A stretch of 64,000 bases of DNA from an uncultured delta proteobacterium (GTDB lineage Bacteria; Desulfobacterota; GWC2-55-46): contig CAVSHY010000014.1 in the NCBI GenBank assembly GCA_963727865.1, positions 38,236-102,235 on the forward strand. The letters are read 5' to 3'. The notes beneath the pieces are model-generated. The model was not told the origin of the DNA and did no database searches. It saw only the letters and a list, made by a program, of their open reading frames with translations. Numbering within the stretch: position 1 is the first letter of the stretch; the number at the start of each line of letters is the position of its first letter. Below, piece by piece: positions 1,801 through 45,949 of this stretch. The position numbers and the translations under genes were made by a program.

Positions 1801-1842
1801 GCAGCCTGCTTAACCGTTAAACTTAAGAATGGGATCAAATGG

Positions 1843-3894: not shown

Positions 3895-4228
3895 AAACGG
3901 ACGCGGGGAAACCTGTCTTTCTGAAGATGCATGGCGTTCACCTGCCCGAAGTTTACCGCGGGGAGCTTCAATGATCAGCCCTAAAAAACTTATTTTTAAT
4001 ACCCCGTCTCAAAAAAGACCCGGAAGAGGAACGAGTCTTCCTGAAAACCTGAATTGCCGGCAGGACGCCTTTTTTGCGGGCCGCCGGGACTCTGCTATAC
4101 TTGGTTCATAAATCTCCGTTTTGCGCAATCCGTTTTCAGCCGCACCAGCGAAATCGCATCCGGCGCTCCGTTGTAGATGAAGCCGTGCCTGAAACGTCTT
4201 ATTATTTTCCGTGAGAAGGAGGCATGTC

Positions 4229-7117: not shown

Positions 7118-7198
7118 CAGAGCGTGTTTTCCGGAAAGGAACTTTCCGCCTGAAAGTTTTCAAGAGCGCCCTTTAAAAAACGGAGGGGGGAGGGGAAA

Positions 7199-8107: not shown

Positions 8108-8130
8108 ATCTTTTAAACGGCGGGGGCTTT

Positions 8131-9720
8131 ATGTCGATAGGGGAAACAAAAATGGAGAAGGGAACGCCCGTAACGGCCGTGAGGGTCGGCGAGCTGGAAC
8201 TGACCGGAGAGCCGTGCGTGGAATTCTGCCCGCCGCCCTGCGGCGTAGTGATATTCGGGGCTTCCGGAGACCTCACCGCGAGGAAGCTCGTGCCTTCTTT
8301 TTATAATCTCACCAGAAACGGCCTCCTTCCGAAAAACTTTTTTATCATGGGCGCTTCCAGGACGAAGATGGATGACGAATCCTTCAGAAACGCCATGGAA
8401 GAGGCCGTAAGGACACACGCCAGGTTCGACGAATCCGTCTGGAAGGACTTCAGGAAGAGGCTTTTCTACAGGCCCGCCTCCGACATCAAATCTTTCGAGA
8501 ATATCAGGGAATCCCTGCTGGAGAAGGAAAAGGAGTTTGATACCCTTGGCAACAGGATATTCTACCTCGCGACCCCGCCCTCGGCCTATTCTGAGATCAT
8601 AGAATACCTGGGCGCCACCGGGATGTCCGAAGAAACAGGAGGCGGCTGGCCGCGCGTAGTAATAGAAAAACCTTACGGGAAGGACTTAAAGAGCGCCCTT
8701 GAACTGAACGAGGTGGTGCTCAGGAGCTTCGGGGAGGAACAGGTCTACAGGATCGACCATTACCTCGGCAAGGACACGGTGCAGAACATCATGATGTTCC
8801 GCTTCGCTAACGCCATATTCGAGCCGATCTGGAACAGGCGCTACATAGACCACGTCCAGATTACCGCCGCCGAGGAGATAGGCATCGAGAAGAGGGCCGG
8901 GTACTACGAGCAGGCCGGGGTGCTCCGCGACATGTTCCAGAACCATATGCTCCTGGTCATGTCTCTTGTCGCCATGGAGCCGCCTTCGGTCTACGAGGCC
9001 GATCTTGTAAGGGACGAAAGGGTCAAGGTCTTCAGGGCGCTAAGGCCCCTGCCGATGGATAACCTTTCAGATTCCCTTGTTACCGGCCAGTACGTGGCAG
9101 GCAAGGTCCGCGGCGGTTTCGTCCCCGGTTACAGGGAGGAAAAGGGTGTCGCGAAGGATTCGTCCGTGCCGACTTTCGCGGCGATGAAGCTTTATATAGA
9201 CAACTGGAGATGGCAGGACGTGCCGTTTTACCTCAGGTCGGGTAAAAGAATGGCGAAGCGGTTCTCCCAGGTTTATATCCAGTTTAAGCATGTGCCGCAC
9301 CTGATGTTCAAGAACACCATTAAAGAAGGGATCACGCCCAACGCCCTTGTTCTCAAGATCCAGCCCGATGAACGGGTACAGCTCAAGTTCCACACGAAAA
9401 ACCCGGGCTCAAGGGTGAGTCTGCGCGATGTGGTCATGGATTTTTCATACACTGAAGGATACAAGGGGATCATACTCGACGCGTACGACAGGATGCTCCT
9501 TGACTGCATGATCGGAGATAAGACCCTTTTTATCAGGAAGGACGGCGTGCGCCTCACGTGGGCGCTCCTGACCCCGGCGCTTGACCTCCTTGAAAAGGGC
9601 GGGCCCGGGGACGCGAGCAAAATTCCTGAACTCGGCATTTACAGGGCCGGGACCCTGGGGCCGGCCGAGGCCGACAGGTTCATCCAGAAGGACGGCAGGC
9701 GGTGGAATAATGACGACTGA
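8131..9720 (+). CDS. zwf: glucose-6-phosphate 1-dehydrogenase
   Basis: 529 aa; [14 protein letters not shown]-binding motif and RIDHYLGKD active-site motif. Confidence 0.95.
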
Positions 9721-10750
9721 GGCAAGGGCCGAAGGAGTTAGGGCGGCAGAGAGCGGCGGGGGCCGCGTTCCAGTCATCCTCTCCGGCGACATCGGGGGAA
9801 CAAAGACCTACCTCGGACTCTTCACGCTCAAAGACGCCCGCCCCGTGCCCTTGAGAGAGGCCTCGTTCACAAACAGCCAATTCCATGGACCCCTTGAAGT
9901 GATAGAGGAGTTCCTTAAGAAAGACAGCGCGCGGAAGATAGATTCCGCCGCCTTCGGCGTCGCGGGACCTGTCGCCGATGGCCGTTCAAAGATGACAAAC
10001 CTCCCATGGGTGGTTGACTCAGCCGAGATAGCCGGGAGGCTCGGAATAAAAAAGGCCGGGGTTATAAACGACCTCGTGGCAACGGCGTGGGGGGTCGATC
10101 TCCTTACGGAGGAGGACATTCTTACCTTGCAGGAAGGAAACCCCGAGCCCGGGAACGCGGCCCTGATCGCCGCTGGCACCGGGCTCGGCGAGGCTCTTCT
10201 TTACTGGGACGGCTCATCGCTCATACCTGTAGCCTCGGAAGCCGGGCACGCCGACTTCGCCCCCCGTGATCCCCTCGAAATTGAACTCCTCCGTTATCTT
10301 ATCGGCCTCTACGGACACGTAAGCTATGAACGGGTCTTGTCCGGGCGCGGGCTTGAGGATATTTATAATTTCTTTAAGGATAAAAGCGGCGGGGCCGAAC
10401 CGGGATATTTAAAAAAAAGGTTTAAGGAAGAAGGCGTGGCGCCTGTCGTCTCCGATGAGGCGATGAACGGCGCCGATAATAACTGCAAGCGGGCCCTTTC
10501 TCTTTTCCTCTCCATCTACGGCGCCGAGGCGGGTAACCTCGCTCTAAGGAGCTTATCCGCCGGCGGGCTTTATGTGGGCGGCGGGATCGCGGTGAGGATA
10601 TTGGAAGCCTTCAAGGAGAAAGACGTTTTCATCGGTTCGTTCCTTAAAAAGGGACGCCTTAAAGATTTTCTCTCCCGCGTACCGGTGCGCGTCATACTTA
10701 ACGATAAGACAGGGCTCCTCGGCGCCGCGCGTTACGCCGCGAGGCTCTGA
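9710..10750 (+). CDS. glk: glucokinase
   Basis: ATG at 9710 overlaps the zwf stop; [10 protein letters not shown] matches the Glk-family ATP-binding motif (E. coli VGDVGGTNAR). Confidence 0.8.
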
Positions 10751-11018
10751 CAGGTTGTTGGAAAAACAGTATTCTGGAGGAAACTTTCTGTAGAAAGGTT
10801 TCCCCCAGACCCCTTTCAAAGATTTTTAGCCGGAACCAAAAGTTTTTGGAGAGAGTTTGAGGTCCGTGCGGACGGCAATTTAACTCTTGGACGCTTACCC
10901 GTCACGTACGTTTTTGCTGAAACCTATGCTAAACAATTAGCCGTGCGCAGCACTTTTTACAAAAAGATTCTCTCAAAACACTTTTTCAACACCTGCCACG
11001 AAGCACGGGACAGGAAAA

Positions 11019-11765
11019 ATGGAAAGATTTATTTACGAAACCCCTGAAGCCCTTGGAAGGGGAGCCGCGGAACTCTTCCGCGCCCTGTCCGAGGAAGTGA
11101 TAAGGAAGAGAGGCCTCTTTACGGCGGTGCTCCCGGGAGGGTCCACGCCTCAGGTATTATTCAAAATCCTTTCATCGGAGTTCAAGGACAAAATTCCGTG
11201 GAACCGGGTCCATTTTTTTTGGGGCGATGAAAGGTGCGTTCCCCCCGAAAGCCCGGAGAGCAATTATAACGGGGCCTGTAAAACTCTCCTTTCGAGGATA
11301 GCAATACCCCCTGAAAACATCCATCGCATAAAAGGGGAACTTGACCCTGTGGAAGGCGCCAGGGCCTACGAGAAAGAGATCAGGGGGTTTTTCGCCGCGC
11401 CCATGAAGGCCCCGGGAGACGTCCCTGTCTTCGACCTCGTCTTACTCGGCATAGGAGAGGACGGGCATACGCTGTCGCTCTTTCCCGGCTCAAAAGCGCT
11501 CGATGAGAAGGAAAGGCTTGTGGCGGAAAATTACGTTCAAGAGCTCAGGGCCTGGCGCATCACCATGACGCTTCCTCTGGTAATTAACGCGTCGAATACC
11601 GTATTTCTCGTCTCCGGGGGAAAAAAGGCAGGCATCCTGAAAGAGGTCTTGAACGATACGGGAGAGGCGCGCTACCCCGCTCAGATGATAAAGCCTGTAA
11701 AAGGGAGGCTTACGCTCCTAACGGACAAGGCGGCCGCCGGGGTTTCAATATTTCCTTCGGGTTGA
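11019..11765 (+). CDS. pgl: 6-phosphogluconolactonase
   Basis: 248 aa; LPGGSTP, GDERCVP and LLGIGEDGHT motifs of the Pgl/NagB fold. Confidence 0.9.
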   Translation: MERFIYETPEALGRGAAELFRALSEEVIRKRGLFTAVLPGGSTPQVLFKILSSEFKDKIPWNRVHFFWGDERCVPPESPESNYNGACKTLLSRIAIPPENIHRIKGELDPVEGARAYEKEIRGFFAAPMKAPGDVPVFDLVLLGIGEDGHTLSLFPGSKALDEKERLVAENYVQELRAWRITMTLPLVINASNTVFLVSGGKKAGILKEVLNDTGEARYPAQMIKPVKGRLTLLTDKAAAGVSIFPSG

Positions 11766-12323: not shown

Positions 12324-12980
12324 CTACTTTGCAGCGTTCTTCGGAGAAACATGGCACCGCTTGCAGTCGGCGAGCGGGAAAGCGATCTTGTTATGACACC
12401 TGCCGCACCACTGGCCGTTTACGATCCCCACCATCGACATATTATTCGCCCCCCTCTGCGGGATGAATATGTTGGGATGGCAAACCTCGCACTTGAGCCA
12501 GAATGTGTGCATCTCGTGCGGGTAGATGACGTCATCGACGAAGTCGCCCTTCGCGAGGATAAGGACATCCATCTTAAGCGGAGGCATCTCGTCGTCGTTC
12601 GGGTCAAGCGAGAACTTCGGGGCGATGCGGTTTTCCCTGACTGATTTCGCCCAGTCTACGAGCCCGAACTTGTCCTTCGGGAGGCTTGACACGGTTATAG
12701 CCTGGGGATGCCACCCGTGCCCTTTGGTATACGCGAAGCTCGGCGGTCTGTTCGGGTCGCCGACTCCGGCGGGATGACCGGCGGTATCGAGATAAATGAC
12801 GCTCGATGGGTCTGTCGGGTCGAGTTTAGGCGCTTCCTTCCTGGGGGCTTCTTCTTTGGCCTTCGGCGCCGCTGCGGCAACGGCGGGGTTCATGTATCCC
12901 CCGACGGCAAACCCGAGAAAGCCCAGGAGTACGGAGAAGAAGGCGGCCTTCAAGAGGCTGCGTTTTGAAGATGCTTTCAT
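12324..12980 (-). CDS. cytochrome c7-like triheme cytochrome with long low-complexity N-terminal extension
   Basis: 218 aa; signal peptide, Ala/Pro/Lys-rich linker, then YPHEMH + CEVCH, CGRCH, CKRCH. Confidence 0.8.
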   Translation of the reverse strand: MKASSKRSLLKAAFFSVLLGFLGFAVGGYMNPAVAAAAPKAKEEAPRKEAPKLDPTDPSSVIYLDTAGHPAGVGDPNRPPSFAYTKGHGWHPQAITVSSLPKDKFGLVDWAKSVRENRIAPKFSLDPNDDEMPPLKMDVLILAKGDFVDDVIYPHEMHTFWLKCEVCHPNIFIPQRGANNMSMVGIVNGQWCGRCHNKIAFPLADCKRCHVSPKNAAK

Positions 12981-15958: not shown

Positions 15959-16007
15959 TTTTTTAATGAACTGCCAAAAATGGCGGATTTAACGGCCGCG
16001 ACGCGTT

Positions 16008-16125
16008 GAACGGGTGCTCACCGCAATCCCGCCGCTTTAGAGGCGGGATTGCGGCGAGCTATAAAAATGACAATCACCTTACCGTGAAGAATCCCCGTCA
16101 TTTATGGCGGGGTTCTTCAATCCGG
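16008..16125 (+). repeat. repeat family B copy (two hairpins flanking conserved ATAAAAATGACAATCACCTTACCGTGAAG core)
   Basis: Near-identical copies at 34422-34538 and 45712-45815, an inverted diverged copy at 37860-37990, and a degenerate copy at 16245-16378. Confidence 0.75.
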
Positions 16126-16551
16126 TCTTTTGTAAAATGAAAGAGATAAACCCGCGGCGATAGCCCCCTTGCGGATTGATTTTATAACAGGATTCTGATA
16201 AACTCCGGAATCGCGGTAAGGCTGAATGGGTGTGCCAGCCGCTCACCGCCGAAAGGCGAGCGGTTTTTCCATCCCGTCGCTTTAGCGGCGGGTCAAGGCT
16301 GGCAAATATAAATGATTATCCGTACCATCGAAATTCTCAGCCATTTATGGCGGAGGATTTTAATCTTCCCGGCAGCGTCAATGCTTATGTAATCCACAGT
16401 TCTAATCTTCCTTTAATCAACGCCGCGTTATAATGAAATATAAGGGAAAAATGCCTGTTAGACCGTGCCCGCGCGATTTGCGGGACGCGGGGGCGTCTAA
16501 AAGGAGTTGAAAAATGAGCGGAGGCGGCAGCGAGCGCGTTTTAACGGATGT

Positions 16552-28322: not shown

Positions 28323-28986
28323 ATGAGTAGACCCATTTTAAAATATCTTTTCATCTCTTTGCTCGTGGCCATTCCCTCGGCCTCTTTAGCCGGAATCAAC
28401 CCCGATATGGACCCGGCGCCCGCCGACAGGCCGTCTTATCAATATAAAAGGGAGCCGGGACAGCTGAAGCATAACAAATACGGCATGATCGACCCGTCCC
28501 CCGGACGTTATTTCGCTGCAGTTCCTCCCAAAAGACAAATACGGGTTTGTGGACTGGGTGAAGGCGCTGAATGACGGCGTAATCGCCCCCAGGGATTCAT
28601 ACCCCGGCACTCAGCCCGGAGAAGAACCGAAGGACGTCCCTGACATCCTCATAAAGGCCAAGCAAGACTTCATGCCCGATGTGATCTTCCCTCACTCGGC
28701 GCATTCGAAGTGGCTCAAGTGCGGCAACTGCCATCCTAAGATATTCGCTGAAAAGGCCGGAAAGACCCCGATATCGATGGTAGGCATCTGGAAAGGGCAG
28801 TTCTGCGGGAGGTGCCATGACAGGGTCTCGTTTCCGACCAGGAACTGTTTCAGGTGCCATTCGGCCCCCAAGACGTATAAAAATATAGGCGAAGGCGACG
28901 CGTCAAAGGATACAAAGTGGACTTCGAGGGAAGAAAAATTCTCGCGTTCAGCCCGAAAGCCGGGTAAGAAAGATATTCGGGAATAG
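28323..28986 (+). CDS. cytochrome c7-like triheme cytochrome, frameshifted at C5 run (~28495-28502)
   Basis: Signal peptide and N-terminus are in frame 1. The LQFLPKDKYGFVDWVKAL + FPHSAH + CGNCH, CGRCH, CFRCH module is in frame 2. Paralog of 12324-12980, where LPKDKFGLVDWAKSV aligns. Confidence 0.7.
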
Positions 28987-30093: not shown

Positions 30094-30816
30094 ATGCGGT
30101 ACTACCCAGTATTCCTTGACATAACCGGCCGGTCCTGCGTCGTGGCGGGCGGCGGAGTTGTAGCGGAAAGAAAGGTTCAGGGGCTTCTCAAGGCCCGCGC
30201 TTCCGTTACCGTTATAAGCCCTCGAGTCACGAAGGTTTTAGAGAAACTCGCCCAAAACGGAACGATCCGCCTCATCAGAAGAAAGTATAAGAAAGGAGAC
30301 CTTCTCGAAGCGGCCGTAGTTATTTCCGCTACCGCCTCAAAGGCCGTAAACAAAGAAATATTTGAAGAGGCCGCCCGCTTAAAGACCCTCGTAAACGTCG
30401 TCGATGACCGCGCGAACTGTAACTTTATCGTCCCTTCGGTTATTGACAGGGGGGGCCTTATAATAGCGATATCCACTTCAGGAAAGGCGCCCGGGCTTGC
30501 CAGGAAGATTCGGGAAGACCTCGAAAGATATATAGGAAGCGAGTATGAAGATTTTACCTCCATCGCAGGGGCCGTAAGGAAGAAGTTGTTGAAAAATGAA
30601 GCAAATCATGATAAAAAGAAAAGAGTTATCGAGGCCTTGGCGGATTCGCCGATCCTTGATTGGCTGAGGCGGGGAGATAGAGAGGTCAGGGAGATAAATT
30701 CTTTTCTTAAAGGGCTTCTCGGAGCCGGGTTTACTCTGTCGAGGCTCGGGGTCAAATTAAAAACCGGCCCTAAAGTGTCTAAAACAACAAAACCTAAAAA
30801 GGGGACAGGGGTCTGA
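30094..30816 (+). CDS. precorrin-2 dehydrogenase / sirohydrochlorin ferrochelatase (SirC/CysG N-terminal-like)
   Basis: MRYYPVFLDITGRSCVVAGGGVVAERKV Rossmann N-terminus typical of siroheme synthase N-domain. Confidence 0.7.
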   Translation: MRYYPVFLDITGRSCVVAGGGVVAERKVQGLLKARASVTVISPRVTKVLEKLAQNGTIRLIRRKYKKGDLLEAAVVISATASKAVNKEIFEEAARLKTLVNVVDDRANCNFIVPSVIDRGGLIIAISTSGKAPGLARKIREDLERYIGSEYEDFTSIAGAVRKKLLKNEANHDKKKRVIEALADSPILDWLRRGDREVREINSFLKGLLGAGFTLSRLGVKLKTGPKVSKTTKPKKGTGV

Positions 30817-31027
30817 AAATGCATGCGAGCGCCCTGCCCGCTGCTTTCAGCGGGGTCAAGCGAGCGAATAGAACTTTTAAAGTCCTACGCGAAACGCCGC
30901 TGATTTTCAGGTTCTCCATAAAGGACTCTGAAAAAACTTACATTTGGAAGATTCCCCGCAGCTTGCCGCGGGGAGCTTCAAATGCCGCGCCTTCGAAATG
31001 TGATCGCGCCGGATTTCTCCGATTATA

Positions 31028-31855
31028 ATGAGTGATTTCTTTCTTTATATAACCGCGCTTGTATACCTGTCGGCGACCGTGGCCTATTCGGCCTATCTCT
31101 TCCTGCGGCGAGACAATCTTATAAAAGCCGCGGAGGGCATTTTTATCGCGGGGTTCGGCTTCCACACCATAACTATCATAAGCGGGTGGGTCGAGGCGGG
31201 CCGTACGCCTGTTACGAGCCTGCATGAGTCCCTGAGCTTTTTCTCGTGGATGACGGCGGCGCTCTATTTCTATGTGCTATTTAAGTACGGGCAAAAGGTC
31301 CTCGGGGCCTTTGTAGCCCCTTTCGCGCTTTTGCTTTTAATAACGGCTTCGCTCATGCCGGGCAAAATTATACCCCTTTCGCCGGTCCTCGAGAGTTACT
31401 GGCTACCGGTCCATGTGATACTCGCGTTCCTGGGGAACGCCTTTTTCGCGCTCGCCTTTTTCCTCGGCATAATGTACATAATCCAGGAGCGTTACCTGAA
31501 GAAGAGGAAATTGAAGGGGCTTTTCTTTATCCTCCCCTCGCTCGAATCGATCGATGAGCTTAATTATAAATGTCTTCAGTACGGGTTCCCGCTCCTTACC
31601 CTTGCCATCATAACGGGGGCGATATGGTCTCAGTACGCCCTCGGGACTTACTGGGACTGGAAGCCGAGGCAGATCTGGTCTCTTATAACATGGTTTCTTT
31701 ACGCCGCGCTCCTTCACGGGAGGCTTACCGCCGGATGGCGCGGGAGGAAGGCGGCGATATTCTCAGGGACCGCTTTCATGGTCCTTCTCGGGTCTTTCAT
31801 AATAATAAATCTGGTTTCAGGCGGCTCGCACGGACTGACCGCCTTTAACAGGTGA
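31028..31855 (+). CDS. CcsA/ResC-family membrane protein (HemX-like) upstream of hemA
   Basis: 275 aa, eight TM, Trp-rich WxxxW segment (GTYWDWKPRQIWSLITW) of the cytochrome c assembly family; the position before hemA matches Bacillus-type hemX. Confidence 0.7.
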   Translation: MSDFFLYITALVYLSATVAYSAYLFLRRDNLIKAAEGIFIAGFGFHTITIISGWVEAGRTPVTSLHESLSFFSWMTAALYFYVLFKYGQKVLGAFVAPFALLLLITASLMPGKIIPLSPVLESYWLPVHVILAFLGNAFFALAFFLGIMYIIQERYLKKRKLKGLFFILPSLESIDELNYKCLQYGFPLLTLAIITGAIWSQYALGTYWDWKPRQIWSLITWFLYAALLHGRLTAGWRGRKAAIFSGTAFMVLLGSFIIINLVSGGSHGLTAFNR

Positions 31856-31859
31856 AGAG

Positions 31860-33167
31860 ATGAACCTCATTATCGTCGGACTCAACCATAAGACCTCGCC
31901 CGTGGAGATAAGGGAAAAGCTTTCTTTCCCGGCCGATACCATAAGCGAGCCCCTGATAAAGCTCACCAACCACTATGGCCTTAACGAGGCCGTGGTGCTC
32001 TCCACCTGTAACAGGGTCGAGGTGCTCGCCATCACGGGCGACATGGAAAAAGGGGTCTGGCAGGTAAAGCGTTTCCTCTCCGATTATCACAATATCCCTC
32101 TTGAAAAGCTCGATGAGCACCTGTACTCGCACTGCGGCGAGGAGGCCGTAAAGCACCTCTTCAGGGTCGCCTCCGGCCTCGATTCGATGGTCATGGGAGA
32201 GCCCCAGATCCTCGGGCAGGTAAAGGACTCGTACGGATACGCGGTACAGCATAATACCGCCGGGGTCGTGGTAAATAAGCTCTACCATAAGGCGTTTCAG
32301 GTCGCGAAGCGCATAAGGACGGAGACAAAGATAGGGGAGTCCGCCGTCTCCATCAGTTTCGCGGCCGTGGAGCTCGCGAGGAAGATATTCGGCAACCTTA
32401 CCGGCCATACCGTAATGCTGCTTGGCGCGGGCGAGATGGCGGAACTCGCGGCCAGGCACCTCATGTCCAACGGCGTACGGGAGATAATGGTCGCGAACAG
32501 GACCTACGAGAAGGCGATAGAGCTTGTAAAGGGGTTCGGCGGGACGGCGATAATGTTCCGCGAGTTCCCCCATTACCTCAAAAACGCGGATATAGTAATC
32601 GCCTCCACCGGGTCCCCGGACTTCATAATAAAACCGGATCAGGTGCGCGAGGTCATGCGGGAGAGGAAGCAGAAACCGATGTTCTTCATAGACATCTCCG
32701 TCCCCCGCAATATCGACCCGCTCGTCAATAATATCGATAACGCCTATGTCTATAACGTCGACGACCTTCAGGGCGTGGTGCAGGCGAACCTTCAGGAAAG
32801 GAGCAAGGAGGCAGGGGCCGCTGAGGGGATAATAGTGGAGGAGATAGAGAAGTTCTACCGCTGGATAAAATCCCTCGACGTCGTCCCCACGATAATCGCC
32901 CTGAGGCAGTGCTGCGACGGGATAAGGAAGGCGGAGCTCAATAAGGCGGTCCAATCACTCGGCAACCTTTCGGAGAAGGACCGGCAGGTGCTCGACGCCA
33001 TGACCTCCGCGATAGTCAATAAGATACTCCACCACCCTGTTACGCACCTTAAAAAAGAGTCCAGCAGGATAGAAGGGGATCTCTACATAGACACCGTCCG
33101 AAGGCTCTTCGACCTCGAAAACTCTCCCGACAACGCCTTGAAAAAGGCCCGCGGCAACGACGATTAA
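31860..33167 (+). CDS. hemA: glutamyl-tRNA reductase
   Basis: 435 aa; MNLIIVGLNHKTSPVEIREKL, catalytic CNRVEV, NADP Rossmann GAGEMA. Confidence 0.9.
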   Translation: MNLIIVGLNHKTSPVEIREKLSFPADTISEPLIKLTNHYGLNEAVVLSTCNRVEVLAITGDMEKGVWQVKRFLSDYHNIPLEKLDEHLYSHCGEEAVKHLFRVASGLDSMVMGEPQILGQVKDSYGYAVQHNTAGVVVNKLYHKAFQVAKRIRTETKIGESAVSISFAAVELARKIFGNLTGHTVMLLGAGEMAELAARHLMSNGVREIMVANRTYEKAIELVKGFGGTAIMFREFPHYLKNADIVIASTGSPDFIIKPDQVREVMRERKQKPMFFIDISVPRNIDPLVNNIDNAYVYNVDDLQGVVQANLQERSKEAGAAEGIIVEEIEKFYRWIKSLDVVPTIIALRQCCDGIRKAELNKAVQSLGNLSEKDRQVLDAMTSAIVNKILHHPVTHLKKESSRIEGDLYIDTVRRLFDLENSPDNALKKARGNDD

Positions 33168-33269
33168 GTCAAAAGGCCGTTTAAGCCACAGCAGGGTTCG
33201 ATTAGTCCCAACGCGTTTCTAAAGGCGGAGCGCACGGGGACGAATTTAAAAAAAGGAAAGGCAAGGATT

Positions 33270-34212
33270 TTGAAAAAGATCACGATCGGAACGCGCGGCA
33301 GCATGCTCGCGCTCTGGCAGGCGAACTGGGTAAAGTCGGAGATAGAAAAAAGAAACCCCGGCCTTGAAGTCGCCCTCGAGAAGATAAAAACCACCGGGGA
33401 TAAGATAACCGATGTCCCGCTCGCGATGGTAGGGGGGAAGGGGCTTTTCGTAAAGGAGATAGAAGAGGCCCTCCTTTCCGGCAAGGCCCAGCTCGCCGTC
33501 CACTCGATGAAGGACGTGCCGACGATATTCCCCGAGGGCCTTCATCTCAAGGCCATAACCGAGAGGGAAGACCCGAGGGACGCTCTTTTCAGCAGAAATG
33601 ATATAAAGCTACTCGACCTCCCGAAAGGGGCGCGGATAGGCACTTCGAGCCTGAGAAGGCAGGCGCAGATACTGAATAAGAGGCCTGATTTTCAGATACT
33701 TCACCTGAGGGGCAACCTCGATACCCGCATGAAGAAGCTCGATGAAGGGCGACTTCGACGCCATAATACTCGCGGGGGCCGGCGTAAAGAGGCTCGGATG
33801 GGCAAGTAGGATCACCGAATTCATCCCGCCGGAAGTCAGCCTTCCGGCGATAGGCCAGGGGGCGCTCGGCATAGAGACCCGCACCGAAGATAAATTCATA
33901 AACGGCCTTGTAGAGTTCTTTAACCATCCTGAGACCTCTGCGGCCGTAAGGGCCGAACGGGCGCTGTTAAAGAGGCTCGAGGGCGGGTGCCAGGTCCCGA
34001 TCGCGGCTTACGGAGAAGTCAAGGGCGAGAGCCTCAGGCTTACGGGCCTTGTCGCGTCCACCGACGGGAAGACCATCGTAAAAGACGTAATCACCGGGGA
34101 TAGGGACGAGGCAGAGGCCATTGGGGTAACTCTCGCCGAAAAGCTCCTCAAGATGGGGGCATGGGATATCTTAAAAGACCTCTACGAAGTAAACCCTCCG
34201 GGCGGGGCGTAA
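33270..34212 (+). CDS. hemC: porphobilinogen deaminase (hydroxymethylbilane synthase), +1 G in GGG run near 33745
   Basis: IGTRGS.LALWQA.. N-terminus. Frame switch between ..[12 protein letters not shown] and [16 protein letters not shown]; removing one G gives the canonical [13 protein letters not shown]. Confidence 0.85.
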
Positions 34213-34421: not shown

Positions 34422-34538
34422 TGAACGGGTGCTCGCCGCAATCCCGCCGCTTTAGAGGCGGGTCAAGGCGAGCTATAAAAATGACAATCACCTTACCGTG
34501 AAGAATCCCCGTCATTTATGGCGGGGTTCTTCAATATG
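34422..34538 (+). repeat. repeat family B copy
   Basis: Near-identical to 16008-16125 and 45712-45815. Confidence 0.75.
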
Positions 34539-34784
34539 ATACGCCATTCTACGATCCCTGAGCGTCGTAATCGGTCCCGCCCAGGATCTCTTCCCTGGTA
34601 TTATCCATTATGGCGTGGAGCGTCTCCAGACTGTTTTTGCAGCCGCCCCCGGCCTTCTTCCACTCAAGTTCTTTTTTCGCCCTTTTAAGTTCCGCCATGT
34701 CCCTGACGGGTTTTTCCGGCTCCCCGGACGTTTTTCCCCTGTTCTTTTTCATTACTTTTTCTCCGGCGTCAAAAACCGGCACCG

Positions 34785-36311
34785 CTACGCGAACTGTCTG
34801 TCAAGCGTCCTGTACTGTATCGCCTCTGAAATATGGTGAGGCCTTATCTTATCTTCGGTCTCCAGATCGGCTATCGTCCGTGAGACCTTGAGTATTCTCG
34901 TATACGCCCTCGCCGAAAGCCCGAGCTTATCCACCGCGGTCTCCAGAAGCCTTACGGATGACGCGTCGAGATCGCAGAAATTTTTAATGTGCCTTGAAGG
35001 CAGCCTGCTATTCCAGTAAATCTTCTTCCCTTCGAACCTTTCAGCCTGGATCTTTCTCGCCGCGTCGACCCTTTTTTTGACCTCCCCGGATGTTTCGTTG
35101 ATTTTATCCACGGTGAGTTCCCGGAACCTCACCGCGGGCACGTCGCAGTGTATGTCTATGCGGTCAAGGAGCGGGCCAGAGAGCCTTGACCTGTACTGGA
35201 TGACGCGCATGGGGGTGCATACGCACTCCTTGTTCTGGTCGCCGAGATGTCCGCAGGGGCACGGGTTCATCGCGCCCACGAGCATGAAATCAGCGGGGAA
35301 TGTAAGAGACATCGCCGCTCTCGATATGGTAACCCTGCCGTCCTCCACGGGCTGTCTTAAGACCTCAAGCACGTTCTTCTTGAACTCCGGCATCTCGTCG
35401 AGGAATAAAACCCCGTTATGCGCGAGACTCACTTCGCCGGGCCTGGGCACCTTGCCGCCCCCTATAAGCCCGGCGTCCGATACCGTATGGTGCGGCGCCC
35501 TGAAAGGCCTTTCCGTGATAAGAGGAGAGCCGGGGGAGAGGGCGCCGGCGACGCTATGGATCTTTGTCGTCTCTATGGCTTCGTCAAGCGTCAAGTCCGG
35601 CAGTATCGTCGGAAGGCGTCTGGCGAGCATCGTCTTTCCGGACCCCGGGGGGCCGATCATCAGGACGTTGTGGCCTCCGGCCGCGGCGACCTCAAGCGCC
35701 CTTTTGACATGGCCCTGTCCTTTTACCTCGGAAAAATCGACCTGCAGCGGAGCTTCTCCCCTGAAGTACTCATTAATGTCAAGCCTGAAGGGTTCTATCG
35801 TAAGCTTTCCGTTCAGGAATTCCACGACGTTGGCGAGGTTATTTATGCCGAATACGTCAAGCCCATCCACTAAAGCGGCCTCTCGCCGGTTTTCTACCGG
35901 CACGATCAATTTTTTATTCAATTTTTTCGCCAGGACCGCTATCGAAAGCACCCCGCGGACGGGCTTTATGCCGCCATCCAGGGAAAGCTCTCCGAGTATA
36001 AGATAATCCATGATGCTCTCATCGGTTATGACGCCTTCCGCTTTAAGTATGCCGGCGGCTACCGGCAGGTCAAAAGCCGTGCCCTCTTTTTTTATGTGAG
36101 CGGGCGCAAGGTTTATCGTTATTTTCTTCGCCGGGAAGGTGTAGCCGGAGTTCTTTATCGCGGATTTTACCCTGTCCTTATTCTCTTTTACGGCGCTATC
36201 GGGAAGTCCGACCGTGGAGAAGAACGGCAGTCCCCTGGAGATATCAACCTCGACTTCCACAGGGTAAGCGTCAATACCCAGCGTAGAACCTGTTAAAACC
36301 TTGGCGAGCAT
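34785..36311 (-). CDS. YifB/ComM family Mg-chelatase-like AAA+ ATPase
   Basis: 508 aa; N-terminal Lon-SSD-like domain, Walker A GPPGSGKT, Mg-chelatase ChlI-like core, C-terminal domain. Confidence 0.9.
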
Positions 36312-36543
36312 GAGCTATATATACCCTAACACACACTGTTTAGTTGTCCGATTTGTCAAATAAAAACGTAGGGTTGAATGAAGGCCCTATGTTTGGCCGA
36401 TGGAGGCACGTATAACTAATTTCCAATATCAAAGATACCCCTCTTTGTCAAGAGTTATAAGGACGGCGCCGATGGACTAAGGGCGTATTGAAAATGCAAC
36501 GCGGGCGCATCCCCGGAGTTTGCCGCGTAAACTTCAATCTTAA

Positions 36544-37845
36544 TCAGCGCTTGGGCCCGTTCTCCAAGCTCTCCCTGAAATATACGTTCACATTATCGAG
36601 GGCGCAGAAACTCCCGCACATGGTGCATGTGTCGGGTTCAGCCGGGGCGCGGTTTGCCCTTATCTCGGAAGCTTTTTCGCCGAAAAGGCCAAGCCTCTTC
36701 TGGTCATCCCATCTCAAGTCTCGCCTTGCCTTTGACATCTGCATGTCCCTGGCCGTCATCCCTAACTTGACCATATCCCCGGCGTGCGCCGCGATCCTTG
36801 CGGCGCAGACGCCCTCTATCACGTCCTCTTTTGAGGGGAGGGCGAGGTGTTCCGCGGGCGTAACGTAGCAGATAAGGTCAGCGCCGTACCTGGCCGCTTG
36901 CGCGGCCCCTATCGCGGCTGAAATATGGTCATAACCGGCCGCCACGTCGGTTGTGAGGGGGCCGAGCACGTAAAATGGCGCGTCCCCGCTCATCCTCTTC
37001 TGCAGTTTCACATTCGCTTCGATGTCATCAAGGGGCAGATGCCCCGGCCCCTCGCACATCATCTGACAGCCCATGTCCTGACCTAAATTAGCGAGCTCGC
37101 AGTTTATGAGGAGCTCCTGAACCTGCGCCCGGTCCAGGCTGTCATGGACCGCGCCCGCGCGGAGCCCGTTCCCGAGGCTGAGGACGCAGTCGTATTTCTT
37201 GAGGATCCCGACGACGCGGTCGAACCTCTCGTAAAGCGGGTTCTCCCTGTTATTCTTAAGCATCCACCCGACCATATAAGACCCGCCCCTCGATACCAGC
37301 CCGCCGTACCTGTACCCCTGCCTGTTGAGCCTCTCGATAGTGAGTCTGTTGATGCCGCAGTGCACCGCCATGAAGGATATGCCGTCAGCGCACTGCCTTT
37401 CGATCACATCGAAAAGGAGCTCCTCGGTGAGTTTATTCGGGTCGTGATATTTTTCTATCGCCTCTTTGAAGGCCTGGTAGAGGGGGACGCTTCCGACCGT
37501 CAGGTTCGTGGCCTGAAGGACTTCCTTCCTGATGCCGTCGAGGTCCCCTCCGACAGAGAGTTCCATCAGGGTATCCGCGCCAGCTTTTTCGGCCGCAAGC
37601 GCCTTTTCCACCTCGGCCTTTACGTCGATTATATCCGAAGAGGTGCCGATACTGGCGTTGACCTTTGTCCTCAGGCCCTTTCCTATGCCGACGAGCCTTG
37701 CCTTACGGTTTTTGTTGTTCGGTATGACCGCCTTCCCCTCCGCGATGGTTTCCATCAGGTATTCGGCGGAGACCCCTTCCAGAGCGGCGGCTTCCTTCAT
37801 CTCGCCGGTGATTATGCGTTTTTTCGCGGACTCGATCTGTGTCAT
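36544..37845 (-). CDS. ThiC-family radical SAM enzyme; candidate 5-hydroxybenzimidazole synthase (BzaF) rather than thiamine ThiC
   Basis: 434 aa with the ThiC fold and C-terminal CTMCGSFCALD Fe-S motif. Sits on the same strand immediately after cbiA in a riboswitch-controlled cobOUTSC-cbiA operon. No THI-box (CUGAGA etc.) is present in the 108-bp upstream gap. Confidence 0.6.
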   Translation of the reverse strand: MTQIESAKKRIITGEMKEAAALEGVSAEYLMETIAEGKAVIPNNKNRKARLVGIGKGLRTKVNASIGTSSDIIDVKAEVEKALAAEKAGADTLMELSVGGDLDGIRKEVLQATNLTVGSVPLYQAFKEAIEKYHDPNKLTEELLFDVIERQCADGISFMAVHCGINRLTIERLNRQGYRYGGLVSRGGSYMVGWMLKNNRENPLYERFDRVVGILKKYDCVLSLGNGLRAGAVHDSLDRAQVQELLINCELANLGQDMGCQMMCEGPGHLPLDDIEANVKLQKRMSGDAPFYVLGPLTTDVAAGYDHISAAIGAAQAARYGADLICYVTPAEHLALPSKEDVIEGVCAARIAAHAGDMVKLGMTARDMQMSKARRDLRWDDQKRLGLFGEKASEIRANRAPAEPDTCTMCGSFCALDNVNVYFRESLENGPKR

Positions 37846-37859
37846 CAATAGCTCCTCTG

Positions 37860-37990
37860 ATTTTTGGATTGAAGAACTCCCGCATAAATGCCGGAGTTCC
37901 CGATGGTAAGGTATGTCATTTATATTCGCCGCGCCTTGACCCGCCCGGCCTTTTAAGGGCGGGCAAGGCGGGCGTTCCATTCACCGCACA
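37860..37990 (-). repeat. repeat family B copy (inverted orientation, diverged, compensatory stems) between cbiA and the ThiC-family gene
   Basis: On the - strand the core ATATAAATGACATACCTTACCATCG is flanked by hairpins CGCCTTGCCCGCCC..GGGCGGGTCAAGGCG and GAACTCCGG..CGGGAGTTC. Other copies have GAATCCCCG..CGGGGTTC at the same position. Confidence 0.6.
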
Positions 37991-39369
37991 TCTTTACAAA
38001 ACCGCTCGCGAACGCCGGGTTACTCCCGAAATGGATGTGTATGTAGCTCGCGAGAGTGTTTTTGTAGAGGTAGCCTTCCGAAACCTCTCTCCTCTCCCTG
38101 TTTTTAAAACTGAAAATCCTTTTTATCCTTGAAGGCGGATTTGAGATTTCCGAGTAGTGGTATTCGTGGCCCCTTACTGTGCCGCCGGCGGGGAGTATGG
38201 GAGACGGCTTGATTTGAACCTCCCTGTACCCGAGAGCCTTTCTCCTAAAAAGCATCCGCGATCTCCATGGGAAAACGCCGCACTGGGAATAACTCTTTCC
38301 GCCCGTGTCCACGATAGATTTTCCGAGGTACATAAGCCCGCCGCACTCCGCGTATATCGGCAGCCCCATTTTAGAGAGGCTCTTCAGTTCCTCCCTCATT
38401 GAAAGGTTAGCCTGAAGCTCTTTAGCCCGGAGCTCCGGGTACCCGCCGCCGAGGTAGACCCCGTTTATTCCAGGGGGCAGACCCTTATCTTTAAGGGGGC
38501 TGAAGAAAACAATGCGGGCGCCGAAGCCCCTCAATAGCTCAAGATTTTCTTCGTAATAGAAACAAAACGCCTTATCCCGCGCGACGGCTATACTTACCGC
38601 GGGCTTCCTGCATTGCGCTTCTTCTAAACCCTTTAATCTTACGCGTCCGCTTTGCGGCAATCCTTTCAGAAGGCTTTTTAGATCGATATTTTTTTCAATG
38701 AACGAGGCGGCCTTCCCTATAAACCTTTTCCACGCCTTTCCTTCGAATGTCCGCGGAAGTAACGAGACCGAGGTGGCGTTCCGGCATCGATAAAGACTCG
38801 TCCCTCGGCACGCAGCCGAGCACCCTTGCGTTCGAATCACGCGGCGCCGAGTCCCTTAAGACCTTGCAATGAGCGGGGCTCGCGACCTTATTAAAGACGA
38901 CCCATCTGACATTAACCTGAGGGTCGAAACTCTCAAACCCCTTTATGATCGCCCCGGCGCTTCTCGCTGTTTTTGAAGCGTCAATTACAAGCAGAACCGG
39001 GAGATTTAGGAGCTTTGAAAGCCCTGAGGTCGAGCCCTCGTCGCTCAGGCCGTCTTTGCCGTCAAAAAGGCCCATCACCCCCTCAATGACCCCTATATCC
39101 GCCCCTGTCATATTCCTGAGGAAGGTATCTCTTACTCCACGGTTCCCCATCATCCAGGTATCGAGATTATATGAAGGCCTTTTCAGGAGCGCGCTGTGGT
39201 GGCCGGGGTCTATGTAATCGGGACCGGCCTTAAAGGGCTGGACAATAAGGTTTCTCCGTCTGAGCGATTCCATAATGCCGAGGGTAATTAGGGTCTTGCC
39301 GGAGCCGCTGCTAACGCCCGCAATGATAAAGGCGGAAGGGTCCGTAAAGTTTTTTTTCTTTTTTTCCAT
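37953..39369 (-). CDS. cbiA: cobyrinate a,c-diamide synthase (CbiA/CobB), frameshifted near 38720-38760
   Basis: N-terminal ATPase domain (GVSSGSGKT) in ORF 38695-39369, C-terminal GATase domain (..AECGGLMYL..) in ORF 37953-38840; the frames switch within an AAAGG/AAAAGG-rich stretch. Confidence 0.8.
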
Positions 39370-39414: not shown

Positions 39415-40050
39415 CTAATAAATTTCCGTTACCTTCATCTCCTGATTAGGCCCGCCGTTTAAGAGTTTAACGACCTTTACGCCGTCCGCGAAGCAATCTA
39501 TGACGTTCAGGCAGCCGTAGTCCTGCTCGATCCTGAAGAAATTCTCGATAGAGAGCCCCATCGCGTCGCAGAGTATCACCCTGTTCACTCCGCCGTGGGC
39601 TACAACGCAGACGGAGCCGTTCCTGTGTTTTTTTGTGATCTCATCGACGGCCGGCAGGACCCTTTCCCTTAAATCAAGGAGGTTTTCTCCGCCCTTGACC
39701 TTGCTCGTCGCGAGGTCCCTGAACCTGAAGCCGGCTTCCTCCGGGAATCTCTCCGCGGCCTCCTCTCTCGTCAGCCCTTCCCACCTGCCGAGGTGGAGTT
39801 CCCTGAGGGCGTGCGCCTTTTCGGGGTTAATCCCCAATCCTTTTCCGATTATGACCGCCCCCTTAAAGGCCCTCTGCAGGTCGCTTGAGTACACCGCCTT
39901 AATGGGAGTCCCGGATAAAAACCCGGAGAGCATTTCCATCTGCTCAACGCCTTTTTCGGTTATATCGATATCAAAGTGCCCGTTATAACGAAGCTCCTGG
40001 TGGTTAACTACCTGGCCGTGGCGTATGAGATAAAGCCTTGTTGCGTCCAT
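39415..40050 (-). CDS. cobC: histidine phosphatase family; likely alpha-ribazole phosphatase
   Basis: LIRHGQ RHG motif, PGM-family fold; context between cobS and cbiA. Confidence 0.7.
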   Translation of the reverse strand: MDATRLYLIRHGQVVNHQELRYNGHFDIDITEKGVEQMEMLSGFLSGTPIKAVYSSDLQRAFKGAVIIGKGLGINPEKAHALRELHLGRWEGLTREEAAERFPEEAGFRFRDLATSKVKGGENLLDLRERVLPAVDEITKKHRNGSVCVVAHGGVNRVILCDAMGLSIENFFRIEQDYGCLNVIDCFADGVKVVKLLNGGPNQEMKVTEIY

Positions 40051-40089: not shown

Positions 40090-40851
40090 TTATATATGCG
40101 GTTGCGCCGCGAGAATCCTCGTGAGCGCCAGAGTTGTTATTAAAAATACCGCCTCCGCGACCTCGCTCTGGAACCCGAAGACATCGCCGGTAACTCCCCC
40201 TATCTTCTTTTTAAAAAAGGCCGAGAACAAATAAATGATAACCCCCAACAGTAACATGAGAAAGAGGGAAAATAGACCGAGGGCCAGGGCGGATAAGACA
40301 GCGGTTAAAACAGTCGCCTTGATAAAAGTAGCCCCCGTGTTGCCCGCGAACGCGGCCCCGAGGCCGCTATCGCTTCTCGCGTATTTTGACCAATACGCCA
40401 TCGGCACCATCGCCCAGCGCCCGATTACCGGGAATATGAACATAACGGGCATCTTCGCTTCCACAGGCATCCCGTCAAGGGCGAGGTACTTTAAGAGTAT
40501 GAGAAGAACCACGAAGGCGACCCCGATGGCCCCCGTTGAGGAATCGCGCATTATCCTGAGCCTTTCTTCCCGGGTGGACCCTCCGGCAAGTCCGTCCACC
40601 GTATCGGCAAACCCGTCGAGATGAAGCCCGCCGTTCGAGAGCACGAGCACAAGGAGCGCTATCCCGGTTACCAGATTACCCGGGAGAAGCCCGGAGAGGA
40701 CATAACTTGAAATAACAAGGAGCCCTCCCTGCAGAGCGCCGACAAGCGGGAAATAGCTCATCGAGGCCGCAAGGTCATCAACGGATATTTCGAGGTCTTT
40801 TTTAACCCGCAATACCGTCAAAAACTGAAGGGCGAGTATAAATCGCTTCAT
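40090..40851 (-). CDS. cobS: adenosylcobinamide-GDP ribazoletransferase (cobalamin synthase)
   Basis: 253 aa polytopic membrane protein with CobS-family N-terminus FLTVLRVK and conserved Asp-rich loop. Confidence 0.85.
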   Translation of the reverse strand: MKRFILALQFLTVLRVKKDLEISVDDLAASMSYFPLVGALQGGLLVISSYVLSGLLPGNLVTGIALLVLVLSNGGLHLDGFADTVDGLAGGSTREERLRIMRDSSTGAIGVAFVVLLILLKYLALDGMPVEAKMPVMFIFPVIGRWAMVPMAYWSKYARSDSGLGAAFAGNTGATFIKATVLTAVLSALALGLFSLFLMLLLGVIIYLFSAFFKKKIGGVTGDVFGFQSEVAEAVFLITTLALTRILAAQPHI

Positions 40852-40884: not shown

Positions 40885-41940
40885 TTAAACATTCTTTTCA
40901 GAGACCCCCGCGTCCCCGAAGGTCGCCATTTCATTGTATATTTTAACCGCGGCTTCGATCAATGAGATGGCAATGGCAGCCCCCGTGCCTTCGCCGAGGC
41001 GCAGGTCGAGATCGACGAAGGGCTTAAGCCCCATCCTCTCGAGCATCACCCTGTGGCCTCTTTCGACGGAGTTATGGGATGCGAAGAGATAATCTTTTAC
41101 CGCGGGCTTGAGCTCGTAAGCGATAAGCGCCCCCGCCGTTGAGATGAAACCGTCGATGACGACCGGGATACGCCTTGCCGCCGCTCCTATTATAAGCCCC
41201 GTGATCCCGGCTATCTCCGCCCCGCCGACCTTCGAGAGGACGTCTATCGGGTCTGACGGGTCTGGTTTATTTATCCTTAAAGCGTCTTCTATCACTGTTA
41301 CCTTATGCTTGAAGCTCAACTCGTCTATCCCTGTGCCTCTGCCGGTAACGTCTTCTACGCGGGCCCCGGAAATTGCGGCGATAATGGCGCTCGAAGGGGT
41401 GGTATTAGCTATGCCCATCTCGCCCGTGCCGAATACCGCTCCTTCCTCCCCGTATTCCTGAGCCAGGGATAATCCGACCTCTACGCACTTCAAAGCCTCT
41501 TCCCTTGTCATAGCCGGGCCTTTACGCATGTTCCGGGTCCCCCGGACGACTTTTTTCCTTATTAGCCCCTTTGCCTCGCTGAATTCACAGTCAACCCCGA
41601 CATCAACGACCGCGACTTCTGCGCCGGCGTGCCGCGCGAGGACGTTTATCCCGGCGCCGCCCTTCAGAAAATTGTAGACCATCTGGGCCGTAACCTCTTT
41701 TGGGAAGGCGGAAACCCCTTCATCCGCGACGCCGTGGTCCCCCGCGAAAGTGAAAATTATCTTCCTTTTAATCCGGGGTTTCGTGTTCCGCGTTATGGCG
41801 ACATACCTCCTCGCGAACTCCTCAAGACGCCCGAGGCTGTCTTTAGGCTTGGTCAGCATATCAAGCCTTGCCTGCGCCTTATCGAGAAAAGCCGGGTCAA
41901 CCGGGGTTATTGATCCAAGGGTTTCTTCCAGTATTGACAT
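40885..41940 (-). CDS. cobT: nicotinate-nucleotide--dimethylbenzimidazole phosphoribosyltransferase
   Basis: 351 aa; CobT fold with GEMGIANTT-type motif. Confidence 0.9.
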
Positions 41941-43079: not shown

Positions 43080-43120
43080 TGAAATAAAAAACCCATCCCT
43101 TTGGAAGGATGGGTTTTTCG
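43080..43120 (-). terminator. riboswitch expression-platform intrinsic terminator
   Basis: On the - strand AAAAACCCATCCTTCCAAAGGGATGGGTTTTTTATTTC (8-bp stem + U-run) immediately upstream of the cobO start. Confidence 0.75.
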
Positions 43121-43189: not shown

Positions 43190-43400
43190 CGACCCTCTCC
43201 CTCGGAAGGCCCTACTCCATACGGTCAGGCAGGTCTCCTGGCTCGCGGGTCATCCTACTCTCTTTTCCTTCCCGGCCCTGTCGGCCAGTGGCAGTTAGAT
43301 AAGATTTCGTCGCCGCTTACAGTTGCGGGGCAGCTCCCGATTCTACGGGATTCCCTTTTGGCCCGGTTGCCGGGCACCTGACAGCGAGTAATCAGATTTA
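43190..43400 (-). ncRNA. cobalamin (AdoCbl) riboswitch aptamer
   Basis: On the - strand AAGGGAATCCCGTAGAATCGGGAGCTGCCCCGCAACTGTAAGCGG ... CTGCCACTGGCCGACAGGGCCGGGAAGG: the conserved GGGAA/UCC, GCCCCGCAACUGUAA and B12-box GCCACUG ... GGGAAGG elements are in canonical order. Confidence 0.8.
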
Positions 43401-43456: not shown

Positions 43457-44254
43457 CTATTTCCCCCGCACACCCTCGTCAAGGAACTTTCTTACGGCCT
43501 CCACGCTCCTCTGGATCATGTTTTCTCCATGAGGCTCCACGGTATATACGGGTTCATTGGGGCAGGCTTTAAGGAACTTGAAAAAAGACCCGAAGTCGAT
43601 CGTGCCTTCCCCGACCGGAAGGTGGTCGTCAAGTTTACCGAAATTATCGTGGAGATGCACTTCCGCTATGAAAGGCCCCAGCTCTTTAAACCATTCCTCG
43701 ATATCCACTTTTGAGAATATCCGCAGGTGCCCGGAATCTATGCAGACCCGAAAGTTCGGGGAATTGATCCTCGCGACGAGCATCTTGAGCGTATCGGGTG
43801 TTTTTTCAAATATGTTCTCGGCGGCTATGACGGCGTCGAGCCTTTCGGCCTCTTTTACGAAGCGGGGCCATGTCTTAAGGCTCTGCTCAAGCCAGAGGCC
43901 GGCGTCTCCGCGGTAACGCCTTTCGTTGTACCCGGCGTGCAACACAACGTTTCGCGGCCTCAGCCAGGAAACGACTTCAAAAACCCTCTTATACCTCTCT
44001 ACCGTGGAAAGCCGTTGATTTTCATCGGCGCTTCCGGGGTTAATATCTATATACGGCCCGTGCATCGTAACCCGCAAAGAGCGCTTCCCGAACTCCTCCC
44101 TTATTTCCATGAGGTCCCCGGGGTCGGCGGTCTCCAGGAACCGGCCGTCGATATACACTTCCGGGTTTATGCCCATGTCAAGGATATCTCCAAGCCTCTC
44201 AAGGAGAAGAGGGTAGGGTATATGAACCTGAATTTTTTTTTCTTCCACTTTCAA
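43457..44254 (-). CDS. sugar phosphate isomerase/epimerase (xylose-isomerase-like TIM barrel, AP endonuclease family 2)
   Basis: 265 aa; TIM-barrel pattern with metal-ligand His/Asp/Glu positions (..VHLHDN.., EPHGE). Confidence 0.65.
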   Translation of the reverse strand: MKVEEKKIQVHIPYPLLLERLGDILDMGINPEVYIDGRFLETADPGDLMEIREEFGKRSLRVTMHGPYIDINPGSADENQRLSTVERYKRVFEVVSWLRPRNVVLHAGYNERRYRGDAGLWLEQSLKTWPRFVKEAERLDAVIAAENIFEKTPDTLKMLVARINSPNFRVCIDSGHLRIFSKVDIEEWFKELGPFIAEVHLHDNFGKLDDHLPVGEGTIDFGSFFKFLKACPNEPVYTVEPHGENMIQRSVEAVRKFLDEGVRGK

Positions 44255-45711: not shown

Positions 45712-45815
45712 GGGTGCGCCGCAACCGCCGCTTTAGAGGCGGGCAAGGCGAGCTATAAAAATGACAATCACCTTACCGTGAAGAATCCCCGTCATTTATG
45801 GCGGGGTTCTCAATT
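45712..45815 (+). repeat. repeat family B copy
   Basis: See 16008-16125. Confidence 0.75.
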
Positions 45816-45949
45816 TCATATTAACGTTTGCTCCCGTTGTATCCGCCATTCAGACCGCCGCGATTCAGCGTGAGAAATAATAAAAAAGGGGCCGCGGCTA
45901 AAGCCGCGGCCCCGTCTGCCTTCCCTGTTTGACTGCGTAACCGATAAAT

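Follow-up and report, generated by a model that had tools for sequence, protein, structure and literature searches.

A candidate BzaF-type 5-hydroxybenzimidazole synthase of the ThiC family at the end of a riboswitch-led cobamide operon

The BzaF family was described in 2015 and its biology has been known since then; Mehta 2015 is said to list three active-site differences between BzaF and ThiC. BzaF proteins, such as GSU3005 of G. sulfurreducens and the HBI synthase of D. acetoxidans, are single PF01964 proteins of about 435 amino acids. BzaA and BzaB of Eubacterium limosum and Moorella are likewise ThiC paralogs of the same pathway and with the same product, but they are encoded as a tandem pair. 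In Geobacteraceae carrying bzaF, the gene has been described as a dedicated lower-ligand gene, and in G. sulfurreducens 5-hydroxybenzimidazole (5-OHBza) is the final ligand (PMC7726332). According to a further study, BzaF has an Asn in place of an Asp of ThiC, which is one of only three differences between the active sites (PMC12661338).

The gene considered here occupies positions 36544-37845 of the window, by which we mean the whole 64-kb stretch of DNA that was analysed. Judged from its sequence, the encoded protein is very probably BzaF, a 5-hydroxybenzimidazole synthase that works as a single subunit by radical-SAM chemistry in the anaerobic cobamide pathway. As such, it is an ordinary member of the BzaF family already known, with which it shares the architecture of a single PF01964 protein of similar length. 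Two differences from the reference BzaF proteins are its lineage, uncultured Thermodesulfobacteriota ('Deltaproteobacteria') and not Geobacteraceae, and a repeat element inserted ahead of the gene. The original prediction placed the ThiC-family gene last in a same-strand cobO-cobU-cobT-cobS-cobC-cbiA operon, and the gene identities obtained with NCBIfam bear this out: the order is cobO-cobU-cobT-cobS-cobC-cbiA-bzaF, all on the (-) strand. The features of the locus are as follows.

36544-37845, (-) strand: bzaF, 5-hydroxybenzimidazole synthase candidate; 433 aa, ThiC family, PF01964 ThiC_Rad_SAM
37858-37978, (-) strand: diverged copy of a two-hairpin intergenic repeat of a ~110-nt family, filling the gap between cbiA and bzaF
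37953-39369, (-) strand: cbiA, cobyrinic acid a,c-diamide synthase; two ORFs, 38695-39369 and 37953-38840
39415-40050, (-) strand: cobC, alpha-ribazole phosphatase family; TIGR03162, 153 bits, slightly below the cutoff of 162.9
40090-40851, (-) strand: cobS, adenosylcobinamide-GDP ribazoletransferase; TIGR00317, 123 bits, cutoff 110
40885-41940, (-) strand: cobT, NaMN:benzimidazole phosphoribosyltransferase; NF000996, 472 bits
41987-42514, (-) strand: cobU, adenosylcobinamide kinase/guanylyltransferase; NF004469, 188 bits
42526-43068, (-) strand: cobO/cobA, corrinoid adenosyltransferase; TIGR00708, 171 bits
~43085-43118, (-) strand: intrinsic terminator, GC-rich stem and U-run, between the aptamer and cobO
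43211-43396, (-) strand: cobalamin riboswitch aptamer (RF00174); Rfam 122.1 bits against a gathering score of 31.5
43457-44254, (-) strand: CbiR-like AP_endonuc_2 TIM-barrel gene, directly upstream of the riboswitch, synteny conserved

The candidate bzaF starts with an ATG preceded by a GAGGAG 7 nt upstream, and dozens of relatives have the identical MTQIE... N-terminus and equal length. A longer ORF, reaching up to 37980, is not credible. The window contains one ThiC-family ORF, as does each of the related loci described below; there is no tandem bzaA-bzaB pair. No terminator was found 3' of bzaF, where the folding is no better than that of shuffled sequences. The neighbouring cbiA is present, as had been called, but a 1-nt insertion near 38746 splits it into two ORFs, and a second 1-nt indel, located in the hairpin, shifts its 3' end. 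In an assembly of 98.3% identity, cbiA is intact (483 aa). The break near 38746 is either a true frameshift or an error of the assembly, and the same holds for an apparent one in hemC around 33740-33810.

A cobalamin riboswitch leads the operon. Its predicted span of 43190-43400 agrees with the Rfam match at 43211-43396, and cobalamin is the sole Rfam family found at the gathering score in the 64-kb window. The intrinsic terminator at 43085-43118 is likely the expression platform of the riboswitch. Since a GC-rich hairpin and a U-run lie between the aptamer and cobO, the riboswitch probably acts by transcription termination. The product of the CbiR-like gene on the other side of the aptamer scores below the family cutoff; it is possibly a cobamide-remodelling phosphodiesterase. 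A bzaC-like methyltransferase was found neither in the window nor in the related loci by tblastn with the T. lovleyi neighbour as the query, and no bzaC/D/E-type methyltransferase lies near bzaF. Elsewhere, the window encodes a TPP-dependent transketolase and two cytochrome c7 proteins of the PpcA type (12324-12980 and 28549-28986); the presence of such cytochromes had been noted in the original prediction.

The gap between the cbiA stop and the bzaF ATG measures 107 nt (37846-37952), one less than the 108 first given. The repeat hairpin said to fill it is indeed there: two stable hairpins (z = -4.3) occupy the gap and form one of five copies of the ~110-nt repeat family in the window. The hairpins were considered as a hidden riboswitch, which we reject, as they have no Rfam match at E<=10, and as a canonical terminator, which we reject because no U-tract follows them and the terminator scan of the gap is empty. 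They may make expression of bzaF partly independent of the operon. The claim that no THI element precedes the gene holds for both ranges scanned with Rfam: a TPP riboswitch (RF00059) is absent from 36300-38300 even at E<=10 and from the entire window at the gathering score. No thi genes were found in the 64-kb window. The lack of thi neighbours and of a TPP riboswitch distinguishes the gene from thiC.

A scan of GTDB species genomes returned 56 related loci with 78-88% identity, mostly from uncultured 'Deltaproteobacteria'/Thermodesulfobacteriota MAGs; Geobacter is absent from them, the best 120 homologs listed are proteins of uncultured MAGs only, and no Geobacter name occurs among the cluster members. 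The order cobO-U-T-S-C-cbiA-bzaF-yifB is found in about 25 of the 56, usually with the CbiR-like gene ahead. A riboswitch precedes cobO in 16 syntenic loci, that is, in all that reach far enough upstream. In eight loci, an ortholog with 85-87% identity is located away from the cob genes and has a cobalamin riboswitch of its own, 100-320 nt upstream. Seven of these riboswitches (L003, L005, L006, L007, L009, L010 and L011) match Rfam with 88-123 bits, and the eighth, in L015, came from an nhmmer search with a profile of the seven Rfam matches. The ortholog in L003 has only housekeeping genes as neighbours, including a DinB-type polymerase and a DEAD-box helicase, so the riboswitch there would control the bzaF ortholog alone. 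Cobamide-specific control of a lone ThiC-like gene, as it can be read from these sequences, is what the BzaF assignment predicts and would be senseless for a thiamine ThiC.

As the reference BzaF we used the protein of Trichlorobacter (Geobacter) lovleyi SZ plasmid pGLOV01 (WP_012471694.1), a stand-in whose name is a RefSeq annotation and which is itself uncharacterised. In a tblastn search against plasmids, our protein is 67.8% identical to it (~67-68%), while the remaining 385 plasmid records show less than 60% identity and the best ThiC reaches 46.7%. The two loci have in common the association with a cobalamin riboswitch and the clustering with cobT and nucleotide-loop genes. They differ in arrangement: on pGLOV01, bzaF adjoins cobT, followed by a SAM methyltransferase, whereas here it lies 3' of cobOUTSC-cbiA. 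Among 1.84 billion 50% representatives scanned in full with HMMER, the leading matches score 566 and 531 bits, after which there is a drop to 408 bits.

For comparison with ThiC, we selected eight proteins whose role is fixed by genomic context. The genes of four are part of thi operons (Thermus, Haliovirga, Clostridium and Bacteroides), and those of the other four immediately follow a TPP riboswitch (Monoglobus, B. thuringiensis, Paenarthrobacter and E. coli). Neighbour-joining trees with Kimura distance were calculated from ~420 columns with 200 bootstraps, on a set whose labelled members are T. lovleyi BzaF, the ThiC comparators and one BzaB representative (P0143). The clade of our protein groups with T. 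lovleyi BzaF at 99.5% bootstrap. All sequences of the xEANA type, archaeal Methanocalculus homologs among them, form one clade at 100% bootstrap that stands apart from ThiC and from the BzaB representative. The phylogeny proposed as a check of the prediction thus puts the protein with the named Geobacteraceae BzaF and away from both ThiC and BzaB.

ThiC proteins (C. crescentus, PDB 3EPM; A. thaliana, 4S28; E. coli b3994) share with our protein the fold, the substrate-binding scaffold and 39-47% identity. The PDB sequence search returned ThiC structures from C. crescentus and A. thaliana only, with no solved BzaF structure among the matches. The catalytic and metal-binding residues common to ThiC and BzaF are kept (Tyr123, His162, Ser185, Arg229, Glu265, His269, Tyr292, Cys326 and His333, along with a Ser-Arg-Gly motif), as is the C-terminal Fe-S cluster motif (Cys407/410/414). 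Two residues that contact AIR differ. With PDB 3EPM as the reference, Ser65 (codon 37651-37653) aligns with Asn219 of C. crescentus ThiC, which is Asn228 in A. thaliana, and Asn226 (codon 37168-37170) aligns with Asp374, which is Asp383 in A. thaliana. The latter is part of the motif SLGN226GLR, which reads SLGDGLR in ThiC; this exchange of Asp for Asn is the one published for BzaF (PMC12661338). In AtThiC, Asn228 forms a hydrogen bond with the 3'-OH of AIR and Asp383 with its N3; HMP-P formation is abolished by N228D and by D383A (PMC11117688).

Three further residues are of the BzaF type: Glu95, Ala160 and Ala230 replace D, T and P of ThiC. In a joint alignment, S65/E95/A160/N226/A230 are invariant in 39 of 39 BzaF-like sequences, the named T. 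lovleyi BzaF included, while the same five columns read N/D/T/D/P in 11 of 11 ThiC comparators. Among the 50% representatives, only those closest to our protein show S/E/A/N/A, and N..D dominates elsewhere. One other of the top-scoring representatives, the archaeal-type P0141, has T/E/A/N/A. These BzaF-type active-site residues agree with the original proposal of a candidate BzaF in place of ThiC.

One reading grants the protein both activities: it would be a bifunctional or promiscuous enzyme that makes 5-hydroxybenzimidazole along with some HMP-P, as the only ThiC-family enzyme of the lineage. AtThiC D383N retains partial HMP-P activity (PMC11117688), and therefore Asn226 alone leaves some ThiC chemistry conceivable; the two reactions also have their first steps in common (PMC12661338). 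However, the equivalent of Asn228 is changed as well, at a position where N228D abolishes HMP-P formation, and the regulation seen is by cobamide only. Together with the description of bzaF in Geobacteraceae as a dedicated lower-ligand gene (PMC7726332) and the absence of positive evidence for a dual role, this makes a bifunctional enzyme highly unlikely.

It is even harder to regard the gene as a true thiC, coding for the HMP-P synthase of thiamine synthesis and placed last in a cobamide operon by chance; to this reading we assign a very small probability. The protein passes the curated cutoffs of two NCBIfam ThiC models, with 580.8 bits on NF009895 (cutoff 410) and 543.2 bits on TIGR00190 (cutoff 460). 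Nearly all of the best 120 homologs listed, to all of which PF01964 is assigned, are named ThiC, and no other thiC was seen in the 64 kb, even though a TPP-dependent transketolase is encoded there. The profile scores are not discriminating, however, as the named T. lovleyi BzaF reaches 600.4 bits on NF009895 and 554 bits on TIGR00190; true ThiCs obtain 640-660 bits on NF009895. The BzaB model TIGR04386 (cutoff 700) behaves in the same way, with 533.2 bits for our protein, 538.8 bits for T. lovleyi BzaF and equally high scores for true ThiCs. NCBIfam was consequently rejected as a means to tell ThiC from BzaF, as its ThiC and BzaB models score both alike. Against a thiamine ThiC stand the replacement of both AIR-contacting residues required for HMP-P (PMC11117688), an identity of at most 47% to context-verified ThiCs as opposed to 67-68% to BzaF, the absence of a TPP riboswitch from the window and the standalone orthologs under cobalamin riboswitches, which for a thiamine gene would be regulatory nonsense.

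The least probable reading, that the protein has a partner subunit, as in a BzaA/BzaB-type synthase, and is not a single-subunit BzaF, can draw on the strong 533 bits with TIGR04386, but this lies below the cutoff of 700 and is equalled by true ThiCs, the cutoff-passing BzaB representative P0143 (733 bits) has the signature L/D/A/D/P, is 47% identical and branches elsewhere in the tree, and the operon, the window and each related locus have one ThiC-family gene only; for BzaA, the exclusion comes from this single-gene context and the sisterhood with Geobacteraceae BzaF.

With the protein taken as BzaF, the naming of its relatives can be understood. Nearly all are labelled ThiC because the NCBIfam ThiC cutoffs admit BzaF and NCBIfam has no BzaF model. 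The original objection to a 'ThiC' annotation is thereby upheld and extends to nearly all of the listed relatives, whose names follow from ThiC HMMs that capture BzaF too. One protein with 83% identity is named 5-hydroxybenzimidazole synthase by JGI.

The following scheme can be proposed for the operon. BzaF would rearrange AIR by radical SAM chemistry to 5-hydroxybenzimidazole instead of the thiamine pyrimidine. We infer that its gene is transcribed last in the cobO-cobU-cobT-cobS-cobC-cbiA-bzaF operon, across the repeat-filled gap. When cobamide is plentiful, the riboswitch and the intrinsic terminator would attenuate transcription of the operon. CobT is expected to phosphoribosylate 5-OHBza, CobU would make adenosyl-GDP-cobinamide, and CobS would couple the latter with the activated 5-OHBza. 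Removal of the phosphate by CobC should then yield [5-OHBza]cobamide. Because bzaC/D/E-type methyltransferases are absent nearby, 5-OHBza itself is the predicted final ligand.

A more elaborate version of this scheme treats the CbiR-like gene, CobO/U/T/S/C and BzaF as a cassette for swapping lower ligands, in which the repeat in the gap is an RNA element that tunes bzaF separately. We consider this version doubtful. If true, the CbiR-like enzyme would strip the nucleotide loop of scavenged cobamides, and imported corrinoids would be rebuilt as [5-OHBza]cobamide.

The practical value of the gene is as a flag for systematic mis-annotation between ThiC and BzaF. Essentially the whole clade is likely to have been deposited as ThiC, probably including the archaeal Methanocalculus homologs. 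Such labels inflate the predicted thiamine prototrophy and hide producers of cobamide lower ligands in metagenome surveys. The residue pair Ser65/Asn226, as opposed to Asn/Asp, offers a simple filter that separates BzaF from ThiC. As BzaF, the gene is uninformative about the capacity for thiamine pyrimidine synthesis. The assignment would instead mean that this uncultured iron- or sulfur-cycling lineage makes a benzimidazolyl cobamide anaerobically, probably [5-OHBza]Cba.

The product of bzaF, the candidate 5-hydroxybenzimidazole synthase gene, scores well over the cutoffs of the NCBIfam ThiC equivalog models NF009895 and TIGR00190, and the NCBIfam library contains no BzaF model. The third model concerned, TIGR04386, is an 'exception' model for BzaB; an Asp-type protein from a Dehalococcoidia locus (L052) reaches 630 bits on it, near the cutoff of 700.

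BzaF homologs with 56-59% identity are present in archaea, in Methanocalculus and other Methanomicrobiales (loci L046-L051 and L054). At the five discriminating positions (65, 95, 160, 226 and 230) they have S, E, A, N and A, the residues typical of BzaF, and they group with bacterial BzaF with 100% bootstrap support. Their score on the ThiC model is 600 bits, so they are probably annotated as ThiC as well. A weak CbiR-like match also occurs in the archaeal loci, on the other strand and some 1.5 kb upstream. Among the representative proteins of the HMMER scan, further ThiC-family lineages display varied residue combinations at the same five positions:

P0155, P0174 and P0260: N-D-V-N-S
P0154: T-D-T-N-P
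P0165 and P0159: S-D-G-D-P

Some of these representatives may be BzaA, and there may be uncharacterised ThiC paralogs of altered chemistry among the others.

A further gene is located directly upstream of the cobalamin riboswitch and on the same strand, a position that is kept in many related loci:

43457-44254, minus strand: CbiR-like gene with an AP_endonuc_2 TIM-barrel domain

Its product scores 78.7 bits on NF041277, the model for the cobamide-remodelling phosphodiesterase, which is below the cutoff of 105. With this gene, the locus may also have a role in cobamide remodelling. The tetrapyrrole-precursor genes sirC-like, hemX/ccsA-like, hemA and hemC (30094-34212, plus strand) are located just downstream of the cob operon region and on the other strand. 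The neighbourhood of the cob operon is therefore broadly devoted to tetrapyrrole and cobamide synthesis. Elsewhere in the window, a compact plus-strand cluster (1750-11765) covers the oxidative pentose-phosphate pathway and the entry to glycolysis, with transketolase, 6-phosphogluconate dehydrogenase, glucose-6-phosphate dehydrogenase, glucokinase, 6-phosphogluconolactonase and a 968-aa transaldolase/phosphoglucose-isomerase fusion.

Two essential tetrapyrrole genes, cbiA and hemC, are each broken into two overlapping ORFs. In cbiA, a 1-nt insertion is found at about 38746 relative to a 98.3% identical assembly, where the gene is intact and encodes 483 aa. The hemC gene is split at about 33740-33810:

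33270-33809: first hemC ORF
33742-34212: second hemC ORF

The occurrence of two frameshifts within 64 kb suggests, but does not prove, that these are indel errors of this assembly and not real pseudogenes.

The window contains five copies of an intergenic repeat of about 110 nt, which matches no family in Rfam:

16000-16128, plus strand: repeat copy
16250-16370, plus strand: repeat copy
34432-34548, plus strand: repeat copy
37858-37978, minus strand: repeat copy in front of bzaF
45712-45832, plus strand: repeat copy

All copies share a conserved core (TATAAAAATGACAATCACCTTACC) and contain two hairpins. One is GC-rich and variable; the second has a loop that is conserved (CATTTATGG) and a stem that varies in sequence from copy to copy while pairing is maintained. 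Because one copy lies between the convergent genes hemC and yifB, the repeat looks REP/MITE-like rather than like a promoter. The copy ahead of bzaF is shared by the same-species assembly L066; it is absent from other relatives, where cbiA abuts bzaF. L066 carries a 75-nt palindromic insertion (AACAGGTTGCGGAAAAAC...GTTTTTCCGCAACCTGTT, at about 52-126) in the cobC-cbiA gap that the window does not have, and the two sequences part 3' of bzaF, after position 36292. These differences are indels of small hairpin elements at the strain level.

In eight loci of the same clade (L003, L005, L006, L007, L009, L010, L011 and L015), bzaF is not at the end of a cob operon. The orthologs, 85-87% identical and matching at about position 10001 in most of these loci, are monocistronic units that lie among housekeeping genes, and each is preceded by a cobalamin riboswitch of its own. 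Within a narrow lineage, bzaF has moved between monocistronic and cob-operon-end arrangements.
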